Position numbers and translations under genes: made by a program. Source: Octopus sinensis (lineage: Eukaryota). Taken from it: a DNA stretch of 64,000 bases. The stretch lies in assembly GCF_006345805.1 (NCBI RefSeq), contig NC_042998.1, positions 99,138,001 to 99,202,000 of the forward strand, given 5' to 3'. Shown here one piece after another: positions 17,554 through 50,212 of this stretch. Position 1 is the stretch's first letter, and each line of letters begins with the position of its first letter. The notes below the pieces were generated by a model, which did not search any database, was not told the DNA's origin, and saw only the letters and a list, made by a program, of their open reading frames with translations.

Positions 17554-18829
17554 GGTGCAGTAAATAAATTATCGTCTAAATTACACAAAAATGAAAATAA
17601 CACTGACAGCTCATTTTAACATATATATTAATATCTTGAAATACTAAAGAGTAAATTTATTCAATAAAATCGCCATTGGCTTCAATCATAGCCTCTAGAT
17701 GACTTTGGAATCTCCTGCAGCTCTTCTGGACAGTCTCCTTGTTTAAGTTGGTCAATGCTGCCATAATCCTTCCTTTCAATTCACCTTGTTATGTTAGAAG
17801 CAGTTTTGATGGTTTCTCACTCAACTGCACCCCACACATAATAATCAAGGGGGTTACAGTCTGGGGAGTTAAGAGGCTAGATGTTAGAGGTGATGTGGTT
17901 GCAGAAATAGTCTGACAGTCATGACTGGGTTCTCCTGCTTGTGTGACATATTGCGGAGTCCTGTTGCTAGATATAGGGTCTTCCGGAGGCCGCCTTCTTT
18001 ACCCAAGGCAGCACCACCTCCTCCAGGCACTTGATGCAGGCTTCCATGTTGAGTCTGAGGCTGTGTGGAAAGATGAATGGAGGCATAACGTTGCCATCAC
18101 TAGTGATCACTCCAAACACCATGATGTTGACTGGATGTTTGACTTTTATCACTCTTAGTACATGTTTCAGGGACAAGACAAGCCAACAGTTGTTCTGTGA
18201 GTTCGCCATCTGATCCTGGCTGAAATTTTCTCAGAAAAACTAAAGCATGTTTGGTTGGAGGGGATGCTTGAATTTGTTAAAAAACTTTTCATAGCATGAT
18301 CTTTCCTTTTGTCATTGATAGTTTGGGATAAAAATTGATGCGTTCTCATCTTGTATGAGGAACACGAAATGTCTTCATGTGGTACCTGCCTGATAAGAAA
18401 CTCAGACACTCCCATATCCCTGGCAATGGACCTGATTGAGTTGGAGGGATCGTTGTCAATCATGGCCTGGATCTTACCAACAAATTCAGGAGTTCTTTTC
18501 TTATCAGAATGATCAGAGTGAGTTTTCTGAGCTTCTGTATCTTTGTAATCACCATTAGACTCATCCAACTCTTTCCAAATCCTCTGCACTGTCCTCAGAT
18601 TGACATTCAAACACTCTGAAATGTTCATATTGGAGCTTCTGGTGCGAATGCCAAACAGTACAGCATATTGTTTCCAAATTTCTGGCAGAGTGAATTGTGT
18701 CATGGTGCTGTTTTTCTCATAGACAGTGCCCAACTGACCCTACTATACTGTGTAGTCAACAAAATCAAAAACAAATAGTGCAGATGTGCAAAATTGAAAA
18801 TATAAAATGGTGACAATTTACCCATCACA

Positions 18830-24242: not shown

Positions 24243-26031
24243 CAGTAGGGGCCAAAATTAGTGAATGGAAATAAAATTTAAAGATATTCAAATTTTACTT
24301 CCTTTTCACGAATGGGATTTTATTGCATATACTTTAAAGTATGTTCATTATTTGCAATGAATTTTGTAGGAAGTGTTTAATAACTAAATGATTTATAATA
24401 GAGAAACTGTTTATTTGAAAAATACAAGATGGACAAAATTAGAAAACATCTGGTCTAAAATTCAAAGAGTAAAATCTGGCAACACTCTGACCAATGTAAA
24501 CTAAGTTGAACTAATAATGCAAAAATTTATATTGAAAAGTAGTGAATTAACAACTATGGAAAGCCAATGTAAAGTTGATGAAAGCCTCAGGAAGCAAGTA
24601 GTCACAATGAAAAAAGAAGGAATGGCAATTTCTGCTATCATTAGAGACATTAACAGATCAAAGGTTGTTCTTTCAAGAATACTGAAGCTTCATGAAGAAA
24701 CAAGTTCATTTACTATGTTAGACAAAACGAGGGAGACCACGGAACACAAGTGTTCAGCAAAGCTGTGTGATTCAGAGGCTGTTGTTAAGAGACCATTTCA
24801 ATACCACTGCAGGAATTTTTTGCTAAGTAAATCGTGATTATGGAATGAATGTGTCTCAGAAGACTGTGGCTTGTCATTTGAAGGAAGTCAGACTTCAAGC
24901 CCATTACCTTGCCACTAAACTGTTCATCAGTATGAAGAGCCAAAAAGTGAGGTTAGTCTTTGCCAATGAGCCTATACTTTGGATGGATGACAACTGGTTG
25001 TGCATGTTCTTCAGTGTTGAAAGTAAGTTCAATTTAGTTGTCTCTGATGGTAGCCAATACTTGAGACATCATAAAAGTGAAAGATTGCTCCCTAAATGCA
25101 TGAAGAAATCGGTGGAGGTTTAACCCTTTAGTGTTCAGATTACTCTGTTAAATGTAATACTTTTTCACTCAAATTGTTTTTAATTAATCATGTATTATCT
25201 TACAGTTTTCAGGTTTCAATGATGTGATTGTTTATTTTTAAAGTGTCAATGTAAGTTAAGTGTGAGAGGCTAGATATAGCCCATTTGAATATAAGACATG
25301 TAGAATATTTAGGCCGGTTTAAACACTAAAGGTTTAATGGTATAGGGAATGATTTCTGCAGCAGGTGTTAGGCTTTTGATCCAGATCCATGGTAATGTGA
25401 ATGCAGTCATATACAAAAACATTGTTCTGCAGCATGTTGTGTCAGCTCTGGGGTCATCTCCAACTCATCAGCCCATCTTTATGCAAGATAATGCACCATG
25501 TCACAATGCTAAAATAGTTAAGAGAGTGTTTGAAACTGAAAACCTTACTGTGATGCATTGGTCAGCTCAGAGCCTGGCCTTAATCCCATTGAAAACTTGT
25601 GAAAGATACTTGGTGATAAGATCAGAGAGCACTGACCTGTGGGTGTTACAATTTAGTGGGAAAAACTTCAGGAAGGATGAAATAAAATTATGTCAGAACA
25701 ATGTAAGAAATTGGGCAAATCCTGTTGACAGAGATGTGCTGAAGTCATTAAAAATAAAGGATTGTACACATCTTATCAATTTATTGTGGACTGTAAAAAT
25801 TTGTGGCAAAATTTTGATTTCTTGAATTTTATGTCATACATTCTGTCCATCTTGTATTTTTAAAATAAACATTTTTTATATTATTTAGTTATTGATCATT
25901 TCCTACAAAATTTATAGTAAATAAGGAACATATTTTAAAATATATTCAGTAAAAATCCCATTCAGAAAAATGAAGTAGAAATGTAAATATTTTTACTTTT
26001 TATTTATGTTCTCTAATTTTGACCACTAATG
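24243..26031 (+). mobile_element. Tc1-type transposon with long TIRs, decayed, interrupted by a piggyBac-type MITE at 25120-25337
   Basis: TA|CAGTAGGGGCCAAAATTAG ... CTAATTTTGACCACTAATG|TA; FFSVESKFNL, FMQDNAPCH and WSAQS motifs. Confidence 0.9.
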
Positions 26032-38699: not shown

Positions 38700-41600
38700 A
38701 GTACAAATGATTCTCAAAATAAAACAAAGTTTTGTTCTGAACATGAAAAAAAGAAAGCACAATAGAAAGATTCCAGGAAATACTGAACCATCTGATCCAA
38801 AAGTAATAAATTTATCATGTGACTTTGTGAAAATGAAGTAAAACTTTTAGAATATGAACTTAAATTTACACCAACTTAGAAAACCTGGCACAATAGATCT
38901 TATAAAAGGTACTGAAGAATTTTGTCTAAAACTTCATCAACTGGAGTTTTTCTAAAAGAAGGATCATGAAGTTCTATCACTTGTGAAAAAGCAAAATGGA
39001 GTTTAAACCTCCAAAGAACAAGAATAAACACTTAGAGGTGTATATAATGTGTCTGAAAAAATCAGTAAACTCAAACATTCCAGAAAATTGTATAAAATCA
39101 AATATTATAAATGAAAAGCATAAAGTATTCAAATGTCTACTGAAAGATTAGCCTATGGTCATTATCTTAATAAAGGGGAAATGATCTTTGAACAACTAAA
39201 TGACCAACATTTCTACAAACAATTAGAAGCTAAAATAAATAAACAATTAAAAACTTGGTGAATTAATGAGCAACTTCAAAAGCAATTTAACCCTTTAGCA
39301 TTCAGATTATTCTGTCAATTGTAATGCTTATTCCTTTACGCTGTTTTGAATTAATCATGCATTATTGTGTAGCTTCAAGATTTTGATGATGTGATTATTT
39401 ATTTTATAATGACATCGTAGGGAAGATGTGTGGTCAAATCTGGTCAGTTTGAACATATACATTCAAGAATTAAGGTGGAGAGGAGGCTCTGCTAGGTTCC
39501 TCACAAGCAAAGAACAAAGATGCAAGATCTTCTGAGCAGGGAACACTGACGGGGTCAGGGGCGTGGTTATACTTCTTGCGGAGAAATGGGTTGATAAGGT
39601 AATCGAGGTAGTCAGAGTCTGTGATAGAATACTTAAGATTAGATTAGTGCTACATTATGGGTTAGCAACCATTATCACGGCATATGCCCCTCAGCTGGGG
39701 CTACCTGATGGACAGAAAGACCAATTTTATGACACCCTCTTGCTGACTAACTTGTCGACGAATGACAGGGACCTTCTCTTTGTGCCTGGTGATTTCAATG
39801 GACATGTTGGACAACTTGCAGGGAACTTCTATGGCATACATGGAGGCTATGGTTTTGGTTCCCACAATGAGGAGGGAACCAGGCTGCTGGAGTTCTGCAA
39901 TGCAAATGATCTTATGGTATGCAATACTAACTTCAGGAAACCTGCCAGTCACCTAGTCACCTACCGATCTGGTAGACACATTAGTCAAATTGACTACATC
40001 CTCACCAGGAAAAATGAAAGATGGCTACTTATAATTGCCAAAACCTTCCCAAGTGAAGAATGTACCCCACAACATAGACTAGTAGTTAGTGACTTCAGGA
40101 TCAGGGCTAAATTGATGCCCAGAAGACAACCAGCATGGAGGAGAAGGGTCTGGAAGCTTAAAGATCCTGAAAATGGACAGAGATTTAGAGACGTATTACT
40201 TGAAGCTTTTGATGAAATAGAGGAGGATATAGCATCACATGACATGGAAGACAACTGGAGGTTTCTACGGGACAACCTGCTGAGGACCACTGACCAGATC
40301 TGTGGATGGTGCAAAGTCCCCTCTCGACCCAAGGTAACGTGGTGCTGGAACAATATTGTTGACAGGGCCATTAGGGAAAAGAAACAGACTTGGAAGGACT
40401 GGAAGAACGGTGGTAGCAGGGAATCATATCTGACTTCCAAAAGGGAAGCTAGGAGGCAAGTTTATTTAACCAATGGGGAAGCAGAGAAGAAAAAGTTTGC
40501 CAATGTTCTGCACCATGAGGACCAAAGACTTGAGGTATTTTGTGCTGCAAGACAGTGTGTGAGAGAGAATTGTGATGTGATAGGAGAGAAATGTGTTTGC
40601 ATGGATAATGGTTCACTTGCATTAAACAAGGCTGGAAAGAGAGAGGTATGGAGACGCTACTATGACAGGTTGTTAAATAAAGAGAATGAATGGGAGAAAG
40701 AGAGACTGCCGAATGCCAACCCAACAGAGGGACCAGCTATCCGAATTGATAGTGCCTTGGTAGATAAAGCAATTAAGGGTATGAAGACAAGGAAAGCCCC
40801 CTGCCCTTCAGGAATCACCGCAAAGATGCTCAAAATATCTGGCAGTATCGGCTATAGCCTAGTCACCTGTATAGTCAATCAGGTAATACATGAAGGTGTC
40901 ATACCCAATGACTGGTGTAGCACCGTAGTCAGCTGCTACAAAGATAAAGGTGATGCATTAGATGCAAATAATTACAGAGGTATCAAGCTGTTGGATCTGG
41001 TAATGAAGGTCATGGAGAGGGTCATAGCCCAACAAATTAGGGAGAGAGTCAGTTTAGATGAGATGCAGCTTGGGTTCGTGCCAGGGAAAAGCACCACTGA
41101 TGCTATATTTCTGGTAAGTCAGCTGCAGGAGAAATACCTAGCCAAAGATAACCCTCTGTACCTGGCTTTCGTTGACATGGAGAAAGCCTTTGACAGGGTC
41201 CCCCGATCCCTTATCTGGTGGTCAATGAGGAAACTAGGAATAGATAAATGGTTAGTGAGAACTGTGCAAGCCACGTACAGGGATGCTGTCAGTAAGTTGA
41301 GGGGAGGGTTGGCAATGATTACAGTGAAGAATTCCAGGTAGAGGTAGGGGTCCACCAAGGTTCAGTCCTCAGCTCTCTCCTATTTATCATAGTCCTACAG
41401 GAAATAACAGAGGAATTCAAGACAGGATGCCCCTGGGAGCTCTTCTATGCTGATGACCTTGCTCTTATTGCTGAGTCACTATCAGAACTAGAGAAGTTTC
41501 AGGTGTGGAAGCAAGGATTAGAATCGAAGGGACTTAGAGTCAACCTAGCTAAAACCAAAGTCTTAATAAGTAGGAGGGTAGACAAACCACAAATCCCTTC

Positions 41601-44600
41601 AGGTAGATGGCCCTGCTCGATCTGTAGAAAAGGCATAGGTAGAAACTCTATAAGACGTACCCAGTGTAAGCTATGGACACATAAGAGGTGCAGCAATATC
41701 AAAGGAAGGCTAACTGGGAAGATAGCTTTTGTATGTGGCAGATGTTCAGGAACAGTAAACACTGAAAATGTGCAGAAAACAACTTCTCTCACATTCCAGG
41801 GATAAAAACTAGAAACAGTTAACAGCTTCCGTTACCTAGGTGACCAAGTCAGTAGCGGGAGTGGATGCTCTGAAAATGGAGCTGCTAAAATAAGAATAGC
41901 CTGGGCAAAGTTCAGAAAGCTCCTACCTCTGCTGGTGACAAAGGGCCTCTCACTCAGAGTAAAAGGTAGACTGTATGATGAATGTGTATGAACAGCCATG
42001 CTACATGGCAGTGAAACATGGGCCATAACTGCTGAGGACATGCGTAAGCTTGCAAGGAATGAAGCCAGTATGCTCCGCTGGCTGTGTAATGTCAGTGAGC
42101 ATACACAACAGAGTGTAAGCACCTTGAGAGAAAAGCTGAACCTTAGAAGCATCAGATGTGGTGTGCAAGAGAGATGACTGCGCTGGTATGGACATGTGGT
42201 GCAAATGGATCAGGGCATCTGTGTGAAAAAGTGTCACACCCAAGCAGTTGAGGGAATCTGTGAAAGAGGTAGACACAGGAAGACCTGGGATGAGGTGGTG
42301 AAGCACGACCTTTGAACATTGGGCCTCACCAAGGCAATGACTAGTAACTGAGACCTTCGGAAATATGCTGTGCTTGAGAAAACCCAGTAAGCCAAGTGAG
42401 ACAATAACCCATGGCCTATGCCAGTGGTGTAACCAGCCTACTTATTCGTTGCTTGTGAAGACCTGTTGAGGCAAGTGAAATCACAATCAAGATCAAATTC
42501 ACTGATGTGGCCAGTGACAGCACCGCCTGACTGGTAGAACGTTAAAAGCACTATCCGAGTGTGATTGTTGCCAGGGCTGCTGACTGGCTCCCATACTGGT
42601 GGCACATAAAAAGCACCATTCGAGTGTGATCATTACCAGTGTCGCCTTACTGGCACTTCTGCTGGTGGCACGTGAAAAACAACATTTGGATGAGGTCGTT
42701 GCCAGTGCTGCTGGACTGGCTCCTGTGCAGGTGACACATAAAGAACACCATGTGAGCGTGGCTGTCGCCAGTACCACCTGACTGGCCCTCGTGCCAGTAG
42801 CATGTAAAAGCACCCACTACACTCTCAGAGTGGTTGGCATTAGGAAGGGTACCCAGCTGTAGAAACTCTGCCAGATCAGATTGGAGCCTGGTGCAGTGAT
42901 CTGGCTCGCCAGTTCTTAGTCAAACTGTCGAACGCATGCCAGCATGGAAAGCAAACGTTAAACAATGATGATGATGATGATGATGACCATTTCAAATGCT
43001 AACAGGTTAACAAAAAAAATGTTGGATTACTGACTAATTTGGAGGTAAAAACAAATAACTTTTATGAACTACCAAAACTTTATAAATCTTAAGAAATTCA
43101 TATCTGTTTAAAGGACTTTAGTACACCATATGTAAAGACTGCCAAAGTGTCTGATGTAAAATTATGCCCAAGTGTCACAAGACAACATCAAGCACTAATC
43201 AATTAATCAATTTACTGGACATAATTTTGAAATTTGGTCCCTAGTTTCATCAGAAATTATATGAACTTCCTAAACCATGTTCTAGAAAGAGTAAATATAG
43301 AGATGATCCTGGTTAGTTTCAACATGAGCAGCTTCTACATAAATAACCCCCATGAATTAGGATTGGGAGCAGTATAATTCTGGATATGGATAGACAAATA
43401 TCCAAACAGAATTCAGGAGAGATTCTGAAAAGAATTTATCCTAGCAGGATTACAATTAGTGCCACAACTTCTATAATAACCAATAATTCCTTCAAATAAA
43501 AGGGACAGCAATGAGCATGAAAGTTACACCCACATTTGCAACACAAGTGATAGGATTTCTTGAAGAAAAATCACTCTATGCCTGATGATCTAGGATTACT
43601 TAATCAGCATTTCCTATTCTATTTAAAACAAAACTGGAAAAGATTCCTGGATGACTGCTTCATATCATGGAACAGAATTAAGGAAGATCTTACATGATTT
43701 CTGAAATTAATGAATTGGTCCAATTCACTATGAAAATGAATGAAAGGGAACTTTCTTTTTGGACATCTTGAAAATTATTGAAAATGTGATTTTTACAGCT
43801 TATTTCTACTGCAAAAACATAGACACACACCAGTCCTTAGATTTTAGATCTTGTCACCCATCATATATTAAAAAGAATATCCCTCTTAATATAGCAATAC
43901 ATATATGTTCCCATTATTATATGCTCTAGTCAATGAGATGACTGGTGGAATTAAAAATATTCCTTTAGTAGCAAAAATACCTGAAAACTTTAGTAAATAA
44001 TACTGTAACCAATGTAAAAGAGATCTCAATCTCTGTTTTATAGAGAACCTCTCACACTGAGGGTAAAGATAAAAACAAAAGCATAAATATTCCATGTCCT
44101 AGTCACCCATAATGCTAGAAACTATAATATCTTACAGCTGGTTAAACAATACCTTCCAATTCTATACCAGTCACAAAACTCAGGAAATAACTGAAGAATC
44201 ACAAATTATTAAGAGCTGAAGACAGCCACCAAATCTTGAAAGACTTGAAATGTGAAATTTACTCCAGAAGAAAAGAAAAGCAAGTAATAAAATGTAAAGA
44301 TCTGTTATGTGGGACATGTGAGTTAATTGAACAGGGCAAAACCAAAAAATTTGAGAATGAGAAGGAACTGAAGGTTAATGCAAATATGAATTGCAAAACC
44401 AAAAATCTCATTTACTACATCACATGCCCACATTGCAATGAGTATTATATTAGCCAAACAGGATCAAAATTTGTAGATTGGGTTACGGTTCATAAACAAG
44501 TCAAAGATTCATCTCTTGAAAATGTTCCATGTGGTGAACATCTAGATATTTGTGCAAGTGGAAAACTCAAAATTTTAATTTTTTTCAAAATAAAGGAAAG

Positions 44601-44670
44601 GAGTGATCAACTATAAAAACCAAAAGAAAAATATTTTATAAGAATTTCAAATCCAAAGTTAAACTGGAAA
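38700..44670 (+). mobile_element. Decayed Penelope-like element (RT + GIY-YIG), split by a MITE/RTE insertion at 39287-43010
   Basis: LVSFNMSSFYINNP, QIKGTAM, WKRFLDDCF; CGTC..CKTKNLIYYITCPHCNEYYISQT (GIY-YIG with upstream CxxC); 5' boundary uncertain. Confidence 0.85.
39460..42986 (+). mobile_element. Young near-full-length RTE LINE (APE, RT, PHD-like finger, 3' UTR), frameshifted
   Basis: 592-aa ORF 39563-41341 (GDFNGHVG, QIDYIL, QHRLV, NYRGIKLL, FVDMEKAFDRVP); YADD at 41446; (GAT)n tail. Confidence 0.96.
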
Positions 44671-45019
44671 TATTCAGCACCACTACTAAAAACAACAGCT
44701 TCTCAACAGATAACCTTATAACATGTGTGCTTGAAACAGCATAAAGTACTTATATGACAGGAAAACTTCCTTCCATAAGGTTTGTGTCTGTTTTTTTAAG
44801 ACTTTTTTATTTAGTTAATTTTTAATTTACAAAAATCTCTCTTTAAATATTATGACTAAATCAAGAATTTTTACCAAAAACTTTGTGTGTGTGTGTGTGT
44901 GAGTGTATGCATATATGCTTATATGTTTGTGTGCATTTGTGTATAACACACATAAACACACACACACACACACACGTACACACATATAGATATAGATCTA
45001 TTTATCTATACCTATATAC

Positions 45020-45790
45020 TCAACTTAGCTACCCTCAGATTCCACCATTGCCTCAAGACAGCTCCAGAACCTAGCACATGCATTTCTCACTGTGTCCCAA
45101 GGAAGAACTTTGACCATCTCCTTGATCTTGGTCCTCGGCCCAGACTTAGTGTTGCAAGCAGAGCAGTTAGTGTTTTTCTCAACCATGCACCCCACCACAC
45201 ATACATACATACATACATTCAGTGAATCATGGGACTACAGTCATGGGAATTAAGAGGCTAGAAATTGTGGATGGTTGAGTCATATAAATTCTCCAACCCT
45301 CACTTCTGACTCTTTCCAGTGGTATGGCAAAGAACTGAATCCTGCTGTCGCACATATGGCCTTCTAGTAGCAACTCTCTCAGCTAGGGTTTGACCAGTCT
45401 GCATCAGCTTCGCATAGTCATCTAAATTAAGCTTAAGGCTCTGTTCAAAGATGTGGAGTGACATGATGCCATCCTTACTGGAGACATGCCCAGTGACAGC
45501 TTCATAGTCTCTGTTGCAGCTGCCCATGTCATGTCTTACTGCTTTTAGTGTTCACAGAGCATTGAACAGCAGCCATAATGTTAGCATTTTGATACCTGAT
45601 GCAAATCATCATGATACAGGTGACACTTTTCCAATATTCAAACAGCTTCCAGGTATCCATGTCAGCTAACATTTCCTCGGCTACAACTTTAACCTTTATG
45701 CTCTCAAACGCTGTTCATTGTTCACCAATACAAGGTATTCCTGATAAAAGAAAATATAAAATTTTGTCAAATTTAGCTAAAATACCCTGT
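45020..45790 (-). mobile_element. Decayed maT/DD37D-like transposon
   Basis: RRPYVRQQDSVLCH and ACARFWSCLEAMVESEG; terminus ACCCTG|TA; related to 17551-18834. Confidence 0.7.
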
Positions 45791-45958
45791 ATATCTATTT
45801 ATATATATATATATACTTCAAATAGAGGTCATAATAAATTCATGAAGGGATGGTATCATCCAAAGAAATACTGGTTCAATACCTAATATTTTTGTGAGGG
45901 AGGTTAATATCCATAAAATAATAGGTTTATATATAAATGATGGTTTATAATCATGCAA

Positions 45959-46304
45959 ATGAATAATAAGAAAATGGAGATATTGAAGTTAATATGAGTT
46001 TATTATCAGCAAAAAAATTTATCATTATCCCTTATAGCTGTTTCAATTAAGCTCAGTGAAATTTAATAAGTATTAAAATCATATTTCTGAGCTTAATCTT
46101 ATACTGCCATGATGATTCAAATAACTAACATATAAAATATCTAAGGGTATATTCTTCCTCCCTCTGAAGAGATTAAGCTCAGAAATATGATTTTAATACT
46201 CATTAAATTTCACTGAGTTTAATTGAAACAGCTGTAAGGGATAATGATCGATTTTTTGCTTATAATAAATTCTTATTTACTTCAATATCTCAATTTTCTT
46301 ATTA

Positions 46305-46308
<4 letters not shown>
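45959..46308. repeat. Inverted repeat (arms about 45959-46100 and 46170-46308), Penelope pLTR-like
   Basis: Arms are reverse complements; bracketed by (TA)n. Confidence 0.9.
46159..46241 (+). ncRNA. Type I hammerhead ribozyme motif
   Basis: tccct-CTGAAGA-[gattaagctcag...ctgagtttaatt]-GAAA-cagctg-TA-aggga; GUA site after 46236. Confidence 0.82.
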
Positions 46309-46401
<93 letters not shown>

Positions 46402-46634
46402 TATATATACAAATATCATTATTTCTAATTCTCTCTAAAGGAGACTATGGCAGTAGTATTGGATATTAATAGTTATCGCCAAGCTAACATGGCAGTCCAG
46501 AAAAATAGGACGAATGCTGCCGTTGTTTAGCTCCAAGAGGCCATCGCCTCTAGCTAGCTATGTGACACACAAACCTGTGTCCATTTTAACCTTTGAAAAG
46601 GGGAGATCAGCAGCTTACCCTTGCTGGTCTGGCA

Positions 46635-46677
46635 TCCACAGACTAGTTTCAAGGTGGTTGCTTCTTATCAATGTGGA
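46635..46677 (-). ncRNA. Minimal type I hammerhead motif, U3-A8 variant
   Basis: tccaca-TTGATAA-gaagcaaccacctt-GAAA-ctag-TC-tgtgga. Confidence 0.72.
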
Positions 46678-46828
46678 GTGGCCTAACCCAGCAGGCGTCG
46701 CTGCTGACCGACTGTTCAAAGGATTATTTACCTAAATTCAGTGGAATACATCCACTGGTTTTTACTGAATTTAGGTAAATAATTCTTCGAACAGTCGGTC
46801 AGCAGTGACGCCTGATGGGTTCGGCTAC

Positions 46829-46871
46829 TCCACATTGATAAGAAGCAACCACCTCAAAACTAGTCTGTGGA
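46829..46871 (+). ncRNA. Minimal type I hammerhead motif, U3-A8 variant, G12 mutated
   Basis: tccaca-TTGATAA-gaagcaaccacctc-AAAA-ctag-TC-tgtgga. Confidence 0.62.
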
Positions 46872-48341
46872 TGCCAGACCAGCAAGGGTAAGCTGCTGAC
46901 CTCCCCTGTTCGAAGGTTATAATGGACACAGGTTTGTGTGTCACATAGCTAGCTAGAGGCAATGGCCTCTTGGAGCTAATCAACGGCAGCATTCGTCCTA
47001 TTCTTATGGATGGATGGGTGGATATAAATATAAATATAGATATCTTTTAAATTTGTTTGTGGAAAATGTTTTGAATATGCAAATAAAGCTCCTATTAGCC
47101 TTCATACTGGTCAAAAAGGATAAGCATCCCTCTGCTGTACATCCATTAATGCTATATCACCTGAAGAAATGGATCACTGAAGATGATCAACCTGATACCA
47201 ATGGATACTACGAACTACACTGTTATCATCCTAGGAATACAGACTATGATCTTAAGAGTTGTGATTTGTGGAAACACACATAGCGATGCATTAAATGTTT
47301 ATAAATTCTATCCAAGGATTATGTGTGTGTGTGTGTGTGTTTTATATAGTTATATGATGTTTGTGGTATTTTTATAATTTTGTTACTGTTTATTATGTTC
47401 AGCATTTATTTATATGTTTATTATGTTCAGCATTTATTTATATGTTTATTATGTTCAGTTTATTATGTCCAGCCTCACTGGAAATTTACAGATTGTGCAT
47501 CCATACTGAAAGCTCTCCCTGTTCCTCTGCCTTAATAATTGTTATTAACAAAGAAAAACAAAACCAAAATATTGAGAGGAGGCTTTGAACTAACAATGTT
47601 CAAAATTGGAAGAAATATTACAAAGCATTTTGTTCAACACTCTAACAATTCTTCCAGTCTACCACCCTTCATAACAGTCTTAATAATGGCAATTTTTAAG
47701 TCCAAATCAACATGGATGCATTATTAATTAACCAAATACTGTGATATTCACCTTGAGAGGTCCTCTCATATAGACACATGATGCATAAAAGCACAGACAT
47801 AGTGTAGCAGATGAAAATCATATAGTATAGATACCAGGACTGCTAGATCACAGGATTTCAGCATACTGCACTTCTTCAGTGGTACATACTGGTGACCACA
47901 TATCAACCAAATTTCTCTGCCAACAATATATAGAGTAATAGCATCTTTCAGCCACTAGTTTTGCAAATAGCCAGTTGGCTTATTAAAAAATAATCATTTG
48001 CAAAGGAAGCAAATACTATGTGTTTTTATGAATCTCTCACAACAAATACTGCAGTATTTGGTGTTCTAACAAGACTTCCACTTTAAGTTGGATTTAAAGA
48101 TAGTCTTTTAATACTAATACTTCTTCTATTACTAATAATTTTTTCTAATATCTTAATGATATATAATTTTTCATGAAACTTTATGTAGATATGTTTTTGG
48201 GTATGTGGATGAACTCACATTGATGAAATTATTTGCTTTTTTGGGGGGGGGGGATGGTTATTTACCTTCTTAACCATTCAATGACTTTCTGCATGACATA
48301 AAAACCTATGATATTATTCCAGTAGATATTATTCTCTACTA

Positions 48342-49603
48342 TTAGGTTGTTCCGAAAATAATGGCCGCTCTAAGTGTTGTATTTTGAAACACAATTTTAT
48401 CATAGTATTTTAATTATAGTTTAAGTGAATTTTGATATATCTAATAATTGATGTATGCTCTTTAATAATTTTCTGCATCCTTGAAGCTTAGTTGCCCTTA
48501 ATTATGAGTATGACAAAAAAGGACCTTTGCTTACTTGTCTTGCATGAGTTCAAGCTTGGGCATACTGCCTCCCAAACTGCTGCTAATATCAACAGAGCAT
48601 GGGGAGAGGCGTCCACAAGTGACTGCACAGTACAAAGGTGGTTTCAGAAATTCTGTAGTGGTGATGAGAGCCCTGAAGATGAAGAAGGTAGAGGACGGTC
48701 ATGCAGTCTTGACAATGAACAATTGCTTACAATTGTTGAACAAAACCATGTCAAAGTGTCAGAGAAATGTCTCAGGCACTTGGTGTCGGTATTACAATAG
48801 TCTCACACAATCTGCAGAAGATTGGTAAGGTGAAGAAGTTTGATAAATGGGTACCACATGAGCTCAATGAACATCAAAAAGTTCGTATTTTGAAGTGTGC
48901 TCAATGCTCTTTCTGCAAATCACCAATAATCCTTTTCTTGACCGAATAGTCACTTGTAATGAAAAGTGGATCCTTTATGATACCGTAAATGATCAGGTCA
49001 ATGGCTTGATCGTGATGAGTCCCCCAAATATTTCCCAAAGCCAAAGTTGCATCAGCAAAAGATTATGGTGACTGTCTGGTAGTCTGCAATTGATGTTGTC
49101 CATTACAGCTTTCTGGAAGCCAATCAGAGTATTACAGTAGAGGTTTATTGCAATCAACTCATTGAAATGCATGCTCACTTGCAAAAAATGAGACCTGCAT
49201 TGGTGAATCGGCATGGCCCAATTCTGCTCCACGATAATGCAAAGCCACATATTCCAAGAATGGCATGGCAGAAACTCACAGACTTGGGATATGAGGCTTT
49301 ACTACATCCTCCATATTCTCCTGATCTTTCATCTACTGACTACCATTTTTTAAAACTTTAAGCATGTTTTTAAGTGATAAAACTTTCAGGTTCAAACCAG
49401 AGGTGGAATCAGCTTTCATAGATTTCTTAGCATCAAATCCAATAAGTTTTTATCAATGAGGCATAAATAATCTTGTTGATCAATGGCAAAGATGAATAGA
49501 TGTTCATGGCTCATACTTTGACCAATCAAAACATTTCTATTGTTAATTTTTCCAGAATAAAATTATGTTTCTGAAATTGGCTATTATTTTCCGAACAACC
49601 TAA
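48342..49603 (+). mobile_element. Full-length decayed mariner (DD34D)
   Basis: TA|TTAGGTTGTTCCGAAAATAAT ... ATTATTTTCCGAACAACCTAA|TA; WVPHEL, LHDNAKPH and HPPYSPDLSSTDY motifs. Confidence 0.95.
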
Positions 49604-50212
49604 TATTACGAATTTGGAAGGTTTAATGAAAAAATTTTCAAATTTTCCTTTCATAATCAAAATATTCTGGATGATATTCTGCAATATTCCCCCTTTCATA
49701 CATCTAACATCAAACATGTTGTTTAACGCTCATGAGCAAGTTGTTGAATGATTACAGATATGAAGATTTATTTAGTTTCTGAACAAAATAATAATAATTA
49801 TTATTTTTTGTCTCTAAATTGTATCAGCATAATTATGACGTGTACCCTCTACAAAATTTATATAAAACGTAAATGGGAATTTCAGTACTAAACTGTAGTT
49901 ATGTCTCAGACATTAAGCTCTACTATTTATTAACTTGGACAGTTGGTTAAAACACACAACATTCTTTATTAATACAGTTTAATGTGAGTTCACTATGTAC
50001 AGTGTGCATGGGGTGCTTCACCTGCAAGGTCATGTGCTGTTTATCTTGATATAAGATCACCATCTCACACACATATAGCTGTGATGCATGTGCCTGGTGT
50101 ACCCTTATCATATTGGTAGTCATGATGGATAAATTGAGCATTGTATATTTGTGCCCTAGTCTCACTTTGATGGCATGTGCTGTCCTCTCACTCAATATAT
50201 ATATGTGTGTGA

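Follow-up and report, generated by a model that had tools for sequence, protein, structure and literature searches.

A hairpin of Octopus sinensis as a likely decayed head-to-head insertion of a dispersed 361-nt repeat with a U3-A8 type I hammerhead motif

Introduction

Metazoan non-LTR retrozymes are described as non-coding units of 350–390 nt that carry one type I hammerhead, are highly self-paired and have a GC content of ~45% (Cervera and de la Pena 2020, PMC7229834; Li et al. 2026, bioRxiv 10.64898/2026.07.22.740005). According to the first of these sources, mollusc retrozymes of 350–390 nt make circles, the axolotl ribozyme HHR_Amex1 cuts well only as a dimer, and Penelope-like elements (PLEs) are proposed to mobilize retrozymes (PMC7229834). 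Hammerheads with a U3-A8 core pair occur in nature and, according to Perreault et al. (2011, PMC3088659), are active in vitro. The same core covariation is reported for Cercyon PLEs of Schistosoma mansoni, with ~1,300 genome motifs and with two opposite-strand motifs 100–700 bp apart (Cervera and de la Pena 2014, PMC4209133). The U3/G8 combination, too, has been published as a natural variant (PMC7151607).

PLE insertions are described with partial tandems, AT-rich or microsatellite targets and two fixed 3′ ends, inverted 5′-truncated copies and a tail being typical (Craig et al. 2021, PMC8557442; Frangieh et al. 2024, PMC11167929). The tail, published as 30–40 nt, is reported to equal in vitro the distance between two start sites of the reverse transcriptase (RT), and a PLE protein is reported to insert in vitro without need of hammerhead cutting (PMC11167929). 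The way in which tandem and inverted insertions are produced by Penelope-like proteins is called undefined in PMC8557442.

Here we analyze a window of 64,000 nt of Octopus sinensis DNA (NC_042998.1, positions 99,138,001 to 99,202,000, forward strand; coordinates below are those of the window). We propose, with a probability of roughly 85%, that a hairpin in this window arose when a dispersed non-coding 361-nt repeat bearing a type I U3-A8 hammerhead motif inserted once, as two copies joined head to head, and that it has since decayed. The repeat is likely a non-LTR retrozyme that a Penelope-like RT copied into a TA tract.

The octopus family resembles the published retrozymes in unit size, lack of coding capacity, single type I hammerhead, self-pairing (known here from the predicted fold) and GC content, and differs from them by its U3-A8 core. 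Published retrozymes form long tandem arrays, whereas octopus copies are mostly dispersed monomers to 1.6-mers with inverted arms. Its stem III, like that described for HHR_Amex1, is one pair capped by a palindromic tetraloop. The core covariation and the opposite-strand motifs recall the Cercyon PLEs, but the motifs reported there are minimal and lie in terminal repeats, whereas the octopus motif has a canonical build in a unit without a reading frame. The family shares the insertion features of PLEs listed above; it differs in lacking RT and endonuclease, in a tail of 56 nt (44 nt in a sister family) and in pairing the two ends one per arm.

Results

Two inverted copies of one repeat form the hairpin

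The 515-bp hairpin that a first-pass annotation had placed at 46496..47010 is real. Its arms (46496–46742 and 46764–47010) are 247 nt each, 94% complementary and separated by a 21-nt gap; the predicted fold has −456 kcal/mol and a z-score of −50, and none of 100 shuffles reached equal stability. The repeat element is larger than the hairpin, with the left copy continuing to 46407, outside the hairpin arm. The insertion is a minus-strand copy plus a partial plus-strand copy, head to head, in a TA tract:

46303..46410, no strand: TA microsatellite at the insertion site
46407..46762, minus strand: copy of nearly the whole repeat unit (positions 1–356), 95% identical to the family majority sequence
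46739..46757, no strand: mini-hairpin with a 7-bp stem and a 5-nt loop at the head-to-head junction (unit positions 6–24)
46764..47037, plus strand: partial inverted copy, clear for unit positions 21–267 up to 47010 (96%)

The 3′ end of the left copy is the family's "long" fixed end and adjoins the TA tract. In the right copy, the alignment of 47011–47037 to the unit is loose and reaches position 300, the family's "short" fixed end; judged by it, the degraded copy probably extends to 47037. The arms differ at 16 of 247 sites, and CpG positions account for 20 of the 247 sites and for 7 of the 16 differences (p 1.4e-4). Both arms carry two family-rare changes, a G>A in stem II and a G>T at unit position 146, and we therefore assign both arms to one template. 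The mini-hairpin noted earlier in the loop is present; it is not special to the loop, being a standing component of the repeat unit. The inverted arms of four further loci (L009, L071, L086, L089) and of the window copy at 46764 start at unit positions 17–21, inside this mini-hairpin, in a sample partly selected for full-length matches from position 21. The position of these starts may favor the head-to-head join.

Elsewhere in the window, two long frames of 601 and 169 codons (39536–41802, plus strand) resemble by eye a LINE endonuclease and RT, and frames at 25346–25822 (plus strand) and 18170–18739 (minus strand) resemble by eye remnants of Tc1/mariner transposases.

The hammerhead motifs of the window are degraded

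Both arms contain the arrangement TCCACA-TTGATAA-(14 nt)-(G/A)AAA-CTAG-TC-TGTGGA, and the layout claimed for each arm in the first-pass annotation, a 6-bp stem I, a palindromic stem III and a GUC site, was found:

46635..46677, minus strand (read 46677–46635): type I hammerhead motif of the left arm, with an intact G12, a U in place of C11.1 and a stem II mismatch shared with the right arm
46829..46871, plus strand: type I hammerhead motif of the right arm, with a 6-bp stem I, a mismatched stem II and a palindromic ACTAGT stem III

The right-arm motif has its U3-A8 core at 46835–46841, a G12A change at 46856 and a predicted GUC cut after 46865. G12 is required for hammerhead catalysis. In both window copies stem II has GAAG against CCTC, which leaves only 2 bp, compared with the 4 bp of GAGG/CCTC in the family. 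Stem I has a predicted probability of 0 in the folded hairpin, and stem II of at most 0.02 in the right arm alone. Neither copy combines an intact G12 with a stable stem II in a foldable context; the right-arm motif is predicted to be inactive and the left-arm motif weak or inactive.

A functional pairing of the two motifs in this insertion is unsupported: they lie on opposite strands, which the first-pass annotation had not noted, share the stem II break, include the right-arm G12A and are joined in a fold with a stem I probability of 0. Any single transcript holds one motif and the antisense of the other; the two motifs therefore cannot pair within one transcript, and a cis dimer of them is ruled out. 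An Rfam search of 44000–50000 gave no hammerhead match on the arms; it gave only sub-threshold miRNA matches on hairpins and a weak hammerhead match on a neighboring motif.

When the whole window was searched for relaxed type I motifs whose stem III is palindromic, four matches appeared: the two arm motifs, a canonical neighbor at 46164 and one weak AT-rich match. The neighbor (46159–46241, plus strand), which lies across the same TA tract from the hairpin and within an inverted repeat at ~45907–46361, is a canonical CUGAAGA type I motif with a 12-bp stem II, a palindromic stem III and a GUA site. It belongs to a separate repeat family (at least 47 matches among 529 candidates), which also occurs as inverted pairs and keeps the CUGAAGA core in most parsed copies; its Rfam Hammerhead_1 score of 18.1 bits is sub-threshold. 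An assignment of this neighbor family as the pLTR of a PLE at L107 proved unsupported, the PLE frame found beside 1 of 20 neighbor loci having its own terminal motif.

The repeat family has a circularly permuted 361-nt unit

Searching the 2.7-Gb genome with the right arm gave at least 55 matches (40 scored of 1883 candidates), and two pattern searches gave at least 64 and at least 100 exact motif matches, with 0 in reversed-pattern controls. The repeat unit is 361 nt long with 46% GC and is circularly permuted, copies crossing from the unit end into the unit start. It is non-coding, the longest ATG frames being 25 aa (sense) and 55 aa (antisense), and has the make-up of a non-LTR retrozyme: a short (170–400 nt) non-coding repeat with one type I hammerhead motif and no LTR. 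Colinear runs longer than one unit occur in 28 of 76 distinct loci, with a maximum of 585 nt; most copies are monomers to 1.6-mers, and no full dimer was found among the 76 loci.

Insertion geometry suggests a Penelope-like machinery

Half of the distinct loci (38/76) are head-to-head and none is tail-to-tail; the other 38 lack an inverted arm. The 3′ ends cluster at unit positions 300 (short) and 356 (long), 56 nt apart, and are mostly followed by AT-rich DNA. Among the 22 head-to-head loci with both outer ends fixed, a count that leaves out 16 loci with at least one end elsewhere, the window locus among them before its right copy was traced to 47037, 19 combine one short and one long end (p 3e-4). 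The sister family repeats this arrangement, with 20 of 48 loci head-to-head, 1 tail-to-tail, and mixed ends, 44 nt apart, in 13 of 14. The family thus has the elements of a Penelope-like insertion, namely an inverted 5′-truncated copy, a partial tandem, a tail and an AT-rich target, and the pairing of two fixed ends at head-to-head loci is likely a Penelope-like signature.

The same genome holds a Penelope-like family with an RT, a cysteine linker and a GIY-YIG domain (L168–L197; for example L170, 1153–3057, minus strand). Its copies end at two sites ~55 nt apart, mostly into TA repeats (10 long, 10 short and 1 other of 21). In this one family, examined at 30 of 151 loci, no sequence in common with the 361-nt unit was found, the only matches being a separate retrozyme-like insertion; for this reason the family is a candidate only for the mobilizing element.

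The 3′ region of this Penelope-like family also contains a minimal hammerhead-like motif that can be read with an A3-U8 core (AUGAAUA), a 2-bp stem II, a palindromic ACCGGU stem III and a GUC site. A literature search for A3-U8 cores found no paper, and a published survey of hammerhead variants in PLEs may list A3-U8 or U3.G8.

The family hammerhead is conserved and covarying

Copies from across the genome bear out an ancestor with an intact G12 and a U3-A8 type I hammerhead. We compared 31 hammerhead copies from 28 distinct loci, chosen by overall similarity: U3 is present in 31, A8 in 29 and a full GAGG/CCTC stem II in 28. The consensus predicted by the first-pass annotation agrees with these copies apart from one base, a stem II position that is G in 28 of 31. 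Its account of the two arms (CTTGAAA versus CTCAAAA) as CpG-decay products of CTCGAAA is upheld, positions 11.1/12 reading CG in 20 of the 31 copies, TG in 5, CA in 4 and other bases in 2. Among 100 listed motif matches to a pattern with positions 3, 7 and 8 left free, which give lower bounds and a few of which belong to the sister family, U3 occurs in 97, A8 in 99 and C3-G8 in 0, with C3.A8 scattered in 3; position 7 takes all four bases. The second stem II pair, among at least 64 matches, is A-U in 38, G-C in 21, G-U in 3 and mismatched in 2.

Across four related families, 97% of 208 cells are paired, and both sides have changed in 10 of 16 pairs, compared with at most 1 in slid controls; this alignment consists of 13 hand-picked rows with intact motifs, without the window arms, and its structure was drawn from the sequences. 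Covariation affects stems I, Ib and II, whereas the core, the CAANNA loop II and the UAC that precedes stem I are fixed. The covarying changes are few events inherited by many copies, yet most of stem I has been replaced. Core positions other than 3, 7 and 8 are invariant or nearly so in the four-family alignment; G12-A13-A14, the A15.1-U16.1 pair and a pyrimidine at position 17 are kept across families that are, by eye, ~55–60% alike. At family level the motif thus has the type I core: a 3-8 pair, U4 G5 A6, A9, G12 A13 A14, A15.1-U16.1 and H17. This conservation makes the family a convincing type I hammerhead, predicted from sequence to be self-cutting. Selection on the motif, as first proposed, is supported by the covariation of stems I, Ib and II with the fixed core across the four families.

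Folded as a circle, the family majority sequence has a z-score of −9.95 (60 shuffles) and is predicted to be 63% paired, with stem I formed at probabilities of 0.8–1.0 and stem II at 0.98–1.0; stem III is absent from the predicted monomer, and two copies are predicted to pair via the 6-bp palindromic ACUAGU duplex that makes stem III. In Rfam, C3-G8 relatives match HH9 at 33.6 bits (E 1.8e-5) and Hammerhead_1 at 30.9 bits (E 1.7e-4), below the gathering scores of 52 and 34 bits, respectively, and no hammerhead match was returned for L020, an intact U3-A8 copy.

The 3-8 pair varies among sister families

The sister family has a 357-nt unit that is colinear with the 361-nt unit over most of its length, and it is younger and abundant. 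It includes U3.G8, U3-A8 and C3-G8 cores and a C.A mismatch in stem I (L131, L152, L160, L122 and others), and it forms arrays (a dimer at L165, a trimer-plus at L160). A pattern that does not cover one U3-A8 loop variant gave 174 matches, of which the first 100 comprise 78 U3.G8 and 22 U3-A8; C3-G8 occurs in three sister-family copies, and in run X16 position 8 is A in ~9% of contig depth. Further relatives at L120 (1175–1567) and L124 (350–431) have a 2-bp stem III closed by a tetraloop, and L120 is an inverted pair with C3-G8 in one arm and U3.G8 in the other.

In a midpoint-rooted tree of 62 rows picked by motif, two long rows being kept, the three C3-G8 copies nest, with good branch support, inside the clade of U3.G8 copies, and another clade, mostly U3-A8, is separate from it. 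The tree is most simply read as amplification of a U3.G8 wobble lineage followed by its resolution to U3-A8 and C3-G8, the direction of change being an interpretation. The rarity of C3.A8, found only in scattered copies, makes this series compatible with selection for pairing; a Watson-Crick 3-8 pair was not required for spread, because the wobble lineage was amplified too. The argument that the double change in itself demonstrates selection on activity is weakened by the sister family, in which 78 of the first 100 listed matches are U3.G8. A literature search for U3-G8 found no dedicated paper, though the natural variant cited above is in print.

Family-like reads occur in RNA runs of a related organism

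Family-like reads, 85–95% alike and in both first-mate directions, occur in all three RNA runs of a related organism that we searched. The runs gave 473, 486 and 432 reads aligned to L028, some of them on an unrelated repeat at the end of that stretch. No pile-up of read ends was seen at the predicted cut site in these runs. Read joints that go back ~360 nt could come from tandem DNA copies as readily as from circles, and reads of diverged variants are found where the depth dips ahead of the cut site. Support at the RNA level is weak. The sister family gave 0 reads in the same three runs.

Discussion

Based on the family-wide geometry, we propose a plausible route by which the window hairpin arose. 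First, a tandem master copy would be transcribed, and two hammerheads would come together by their palindromic stem III (ACUAGU) and cleave after GUC. The resulting monomers may then be ligated into circles. A Penelope-like RT/GIY-YIG protein would nick AT-rich DNA, and reverse transcription would start at two RNA sites 56 nt apart, one per DNA strand. Finally, joining of the two cDNAs at their 5′ ends would produce the inverted repeat. Because it would result from such a head-to-head cDNA join, the hairpin is best regarded as a by-product of insertion and not as a designed RNA.

One alternative concerns catalysis, and we consider it unlikely: the family hammerhead may no longer cut, having been crippled by U3 and spread without cleavage, with its fold kept for protein binding. 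The U3.G8 majority of the sister family (78 of the first 100 listed), the dispensability of cutting reported for PLE insertion in vitro (PMC11167929) and the lack of a read-end pile-up at the site agree with such a loss. Nevertheless, U3-A8 is stated to be active in vitro (PMC3088659), and a U3/G8 hammerhead exists in nature (PMC7151607). The conservation of G12-A13-A14, A15.1-U16.1 and the pyrimidine at 17 across families also argues against loss of function, as does the resolution of U3.G8 to U-A or C-G in subclades, with C3.A8 only scattered (3/100).

Less probable still, the unit could be the pseudo-LTR or 3′ end of an autonomous PLE, and the loci heavily 5′-truncated insertions and not an independent retrozyme. 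Its insertion geometry and two-end tail are the same as those of PLEs, U3-A8 cores and opposite-strand pairs 100–700 bp apart are described in truncated Schistosoma PLEs (PMC4209133), and a relationship between retrozymes and pLTRs is reported (bioRxiv 10.64898/2026.07.22.740005). However, copies that run past one unit re-enter the unit and never a reading frame, as seen in 28 of 76 loci and in the sister-family trimer-plus. The 76 loci have neither a flank nor an adjoining long reading frame in common, no RT frame lies beside any of them, and none of these loci has an RT plus GIY-YIG frame between repeats as an autonomous PLE would. Moreover, the hammerhead has the full canonical build (a 4-bp stem II, a 6-nt loop II and an extended stem I) and not the minimal build of PLEs.

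That the hairpin itself is functional, whether as a MITE (a foldback DNA transposon) or as a hairpin RNA under selection in which two ribozymes are hidden or regulated, is highly improbable: the 515-nt hairpin is very stable and a spanning transcript would be double-stranded and could feed small-RNA pathways, but arm lengths and junctions vary among loci, the outer ends are two different unit positions and not fixed terminal inverted repeats, half of the loci have no inverted arm, the arm differences are enriched at CpG as in neutral DNA and the motifs are on opposite strands, and a MITE is rejected on the terminal repeats and the loci without inverted arm.

We thus return to a decayed head-to-head retrozyme insertion as the preferred reading. 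Several of its components are known already: U3-A8 cores, opposite-strand hammerhead pairs and retrozymes have been described (PMC3088659, PMC4209133, PMC7229834), the U3-A8 swap itself is not new (PMC3088659, PMC4209133), and the supplements of PMC4209133 and PMC7229834 may include this family or close ones. The window locus is a dead copy and in itself matters little. The family adds a further likely invertebrate retrozyme, one in which a hammerhead of canonical build is fixed for U3-A8, and the amplification of a sister family with U3.G8 is a second usable fact. The strict pairing of two ends in inverted insertions bears on how Penelope-like proteins make tandem and inverted insertions, and also on the mobilization of retrozymes by PLEs. 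More tentatively, and at somewhat below even odds, this retrozyme lineage may record the evolution of a core pair through a viable wobble, with U3.G8 at high copy number giving rise to U3-A8 and, in reversion, to C3-G8, and A3-U8 may be in use in a Penelope-like element of the same genome. If the wobble reading and the short/long end rule are true, these families would offer sequences from nature with which to test how a catalytic core evolves by compensatory change, as well as two-site, two-strand priming by a Penelope-type RT dimer.
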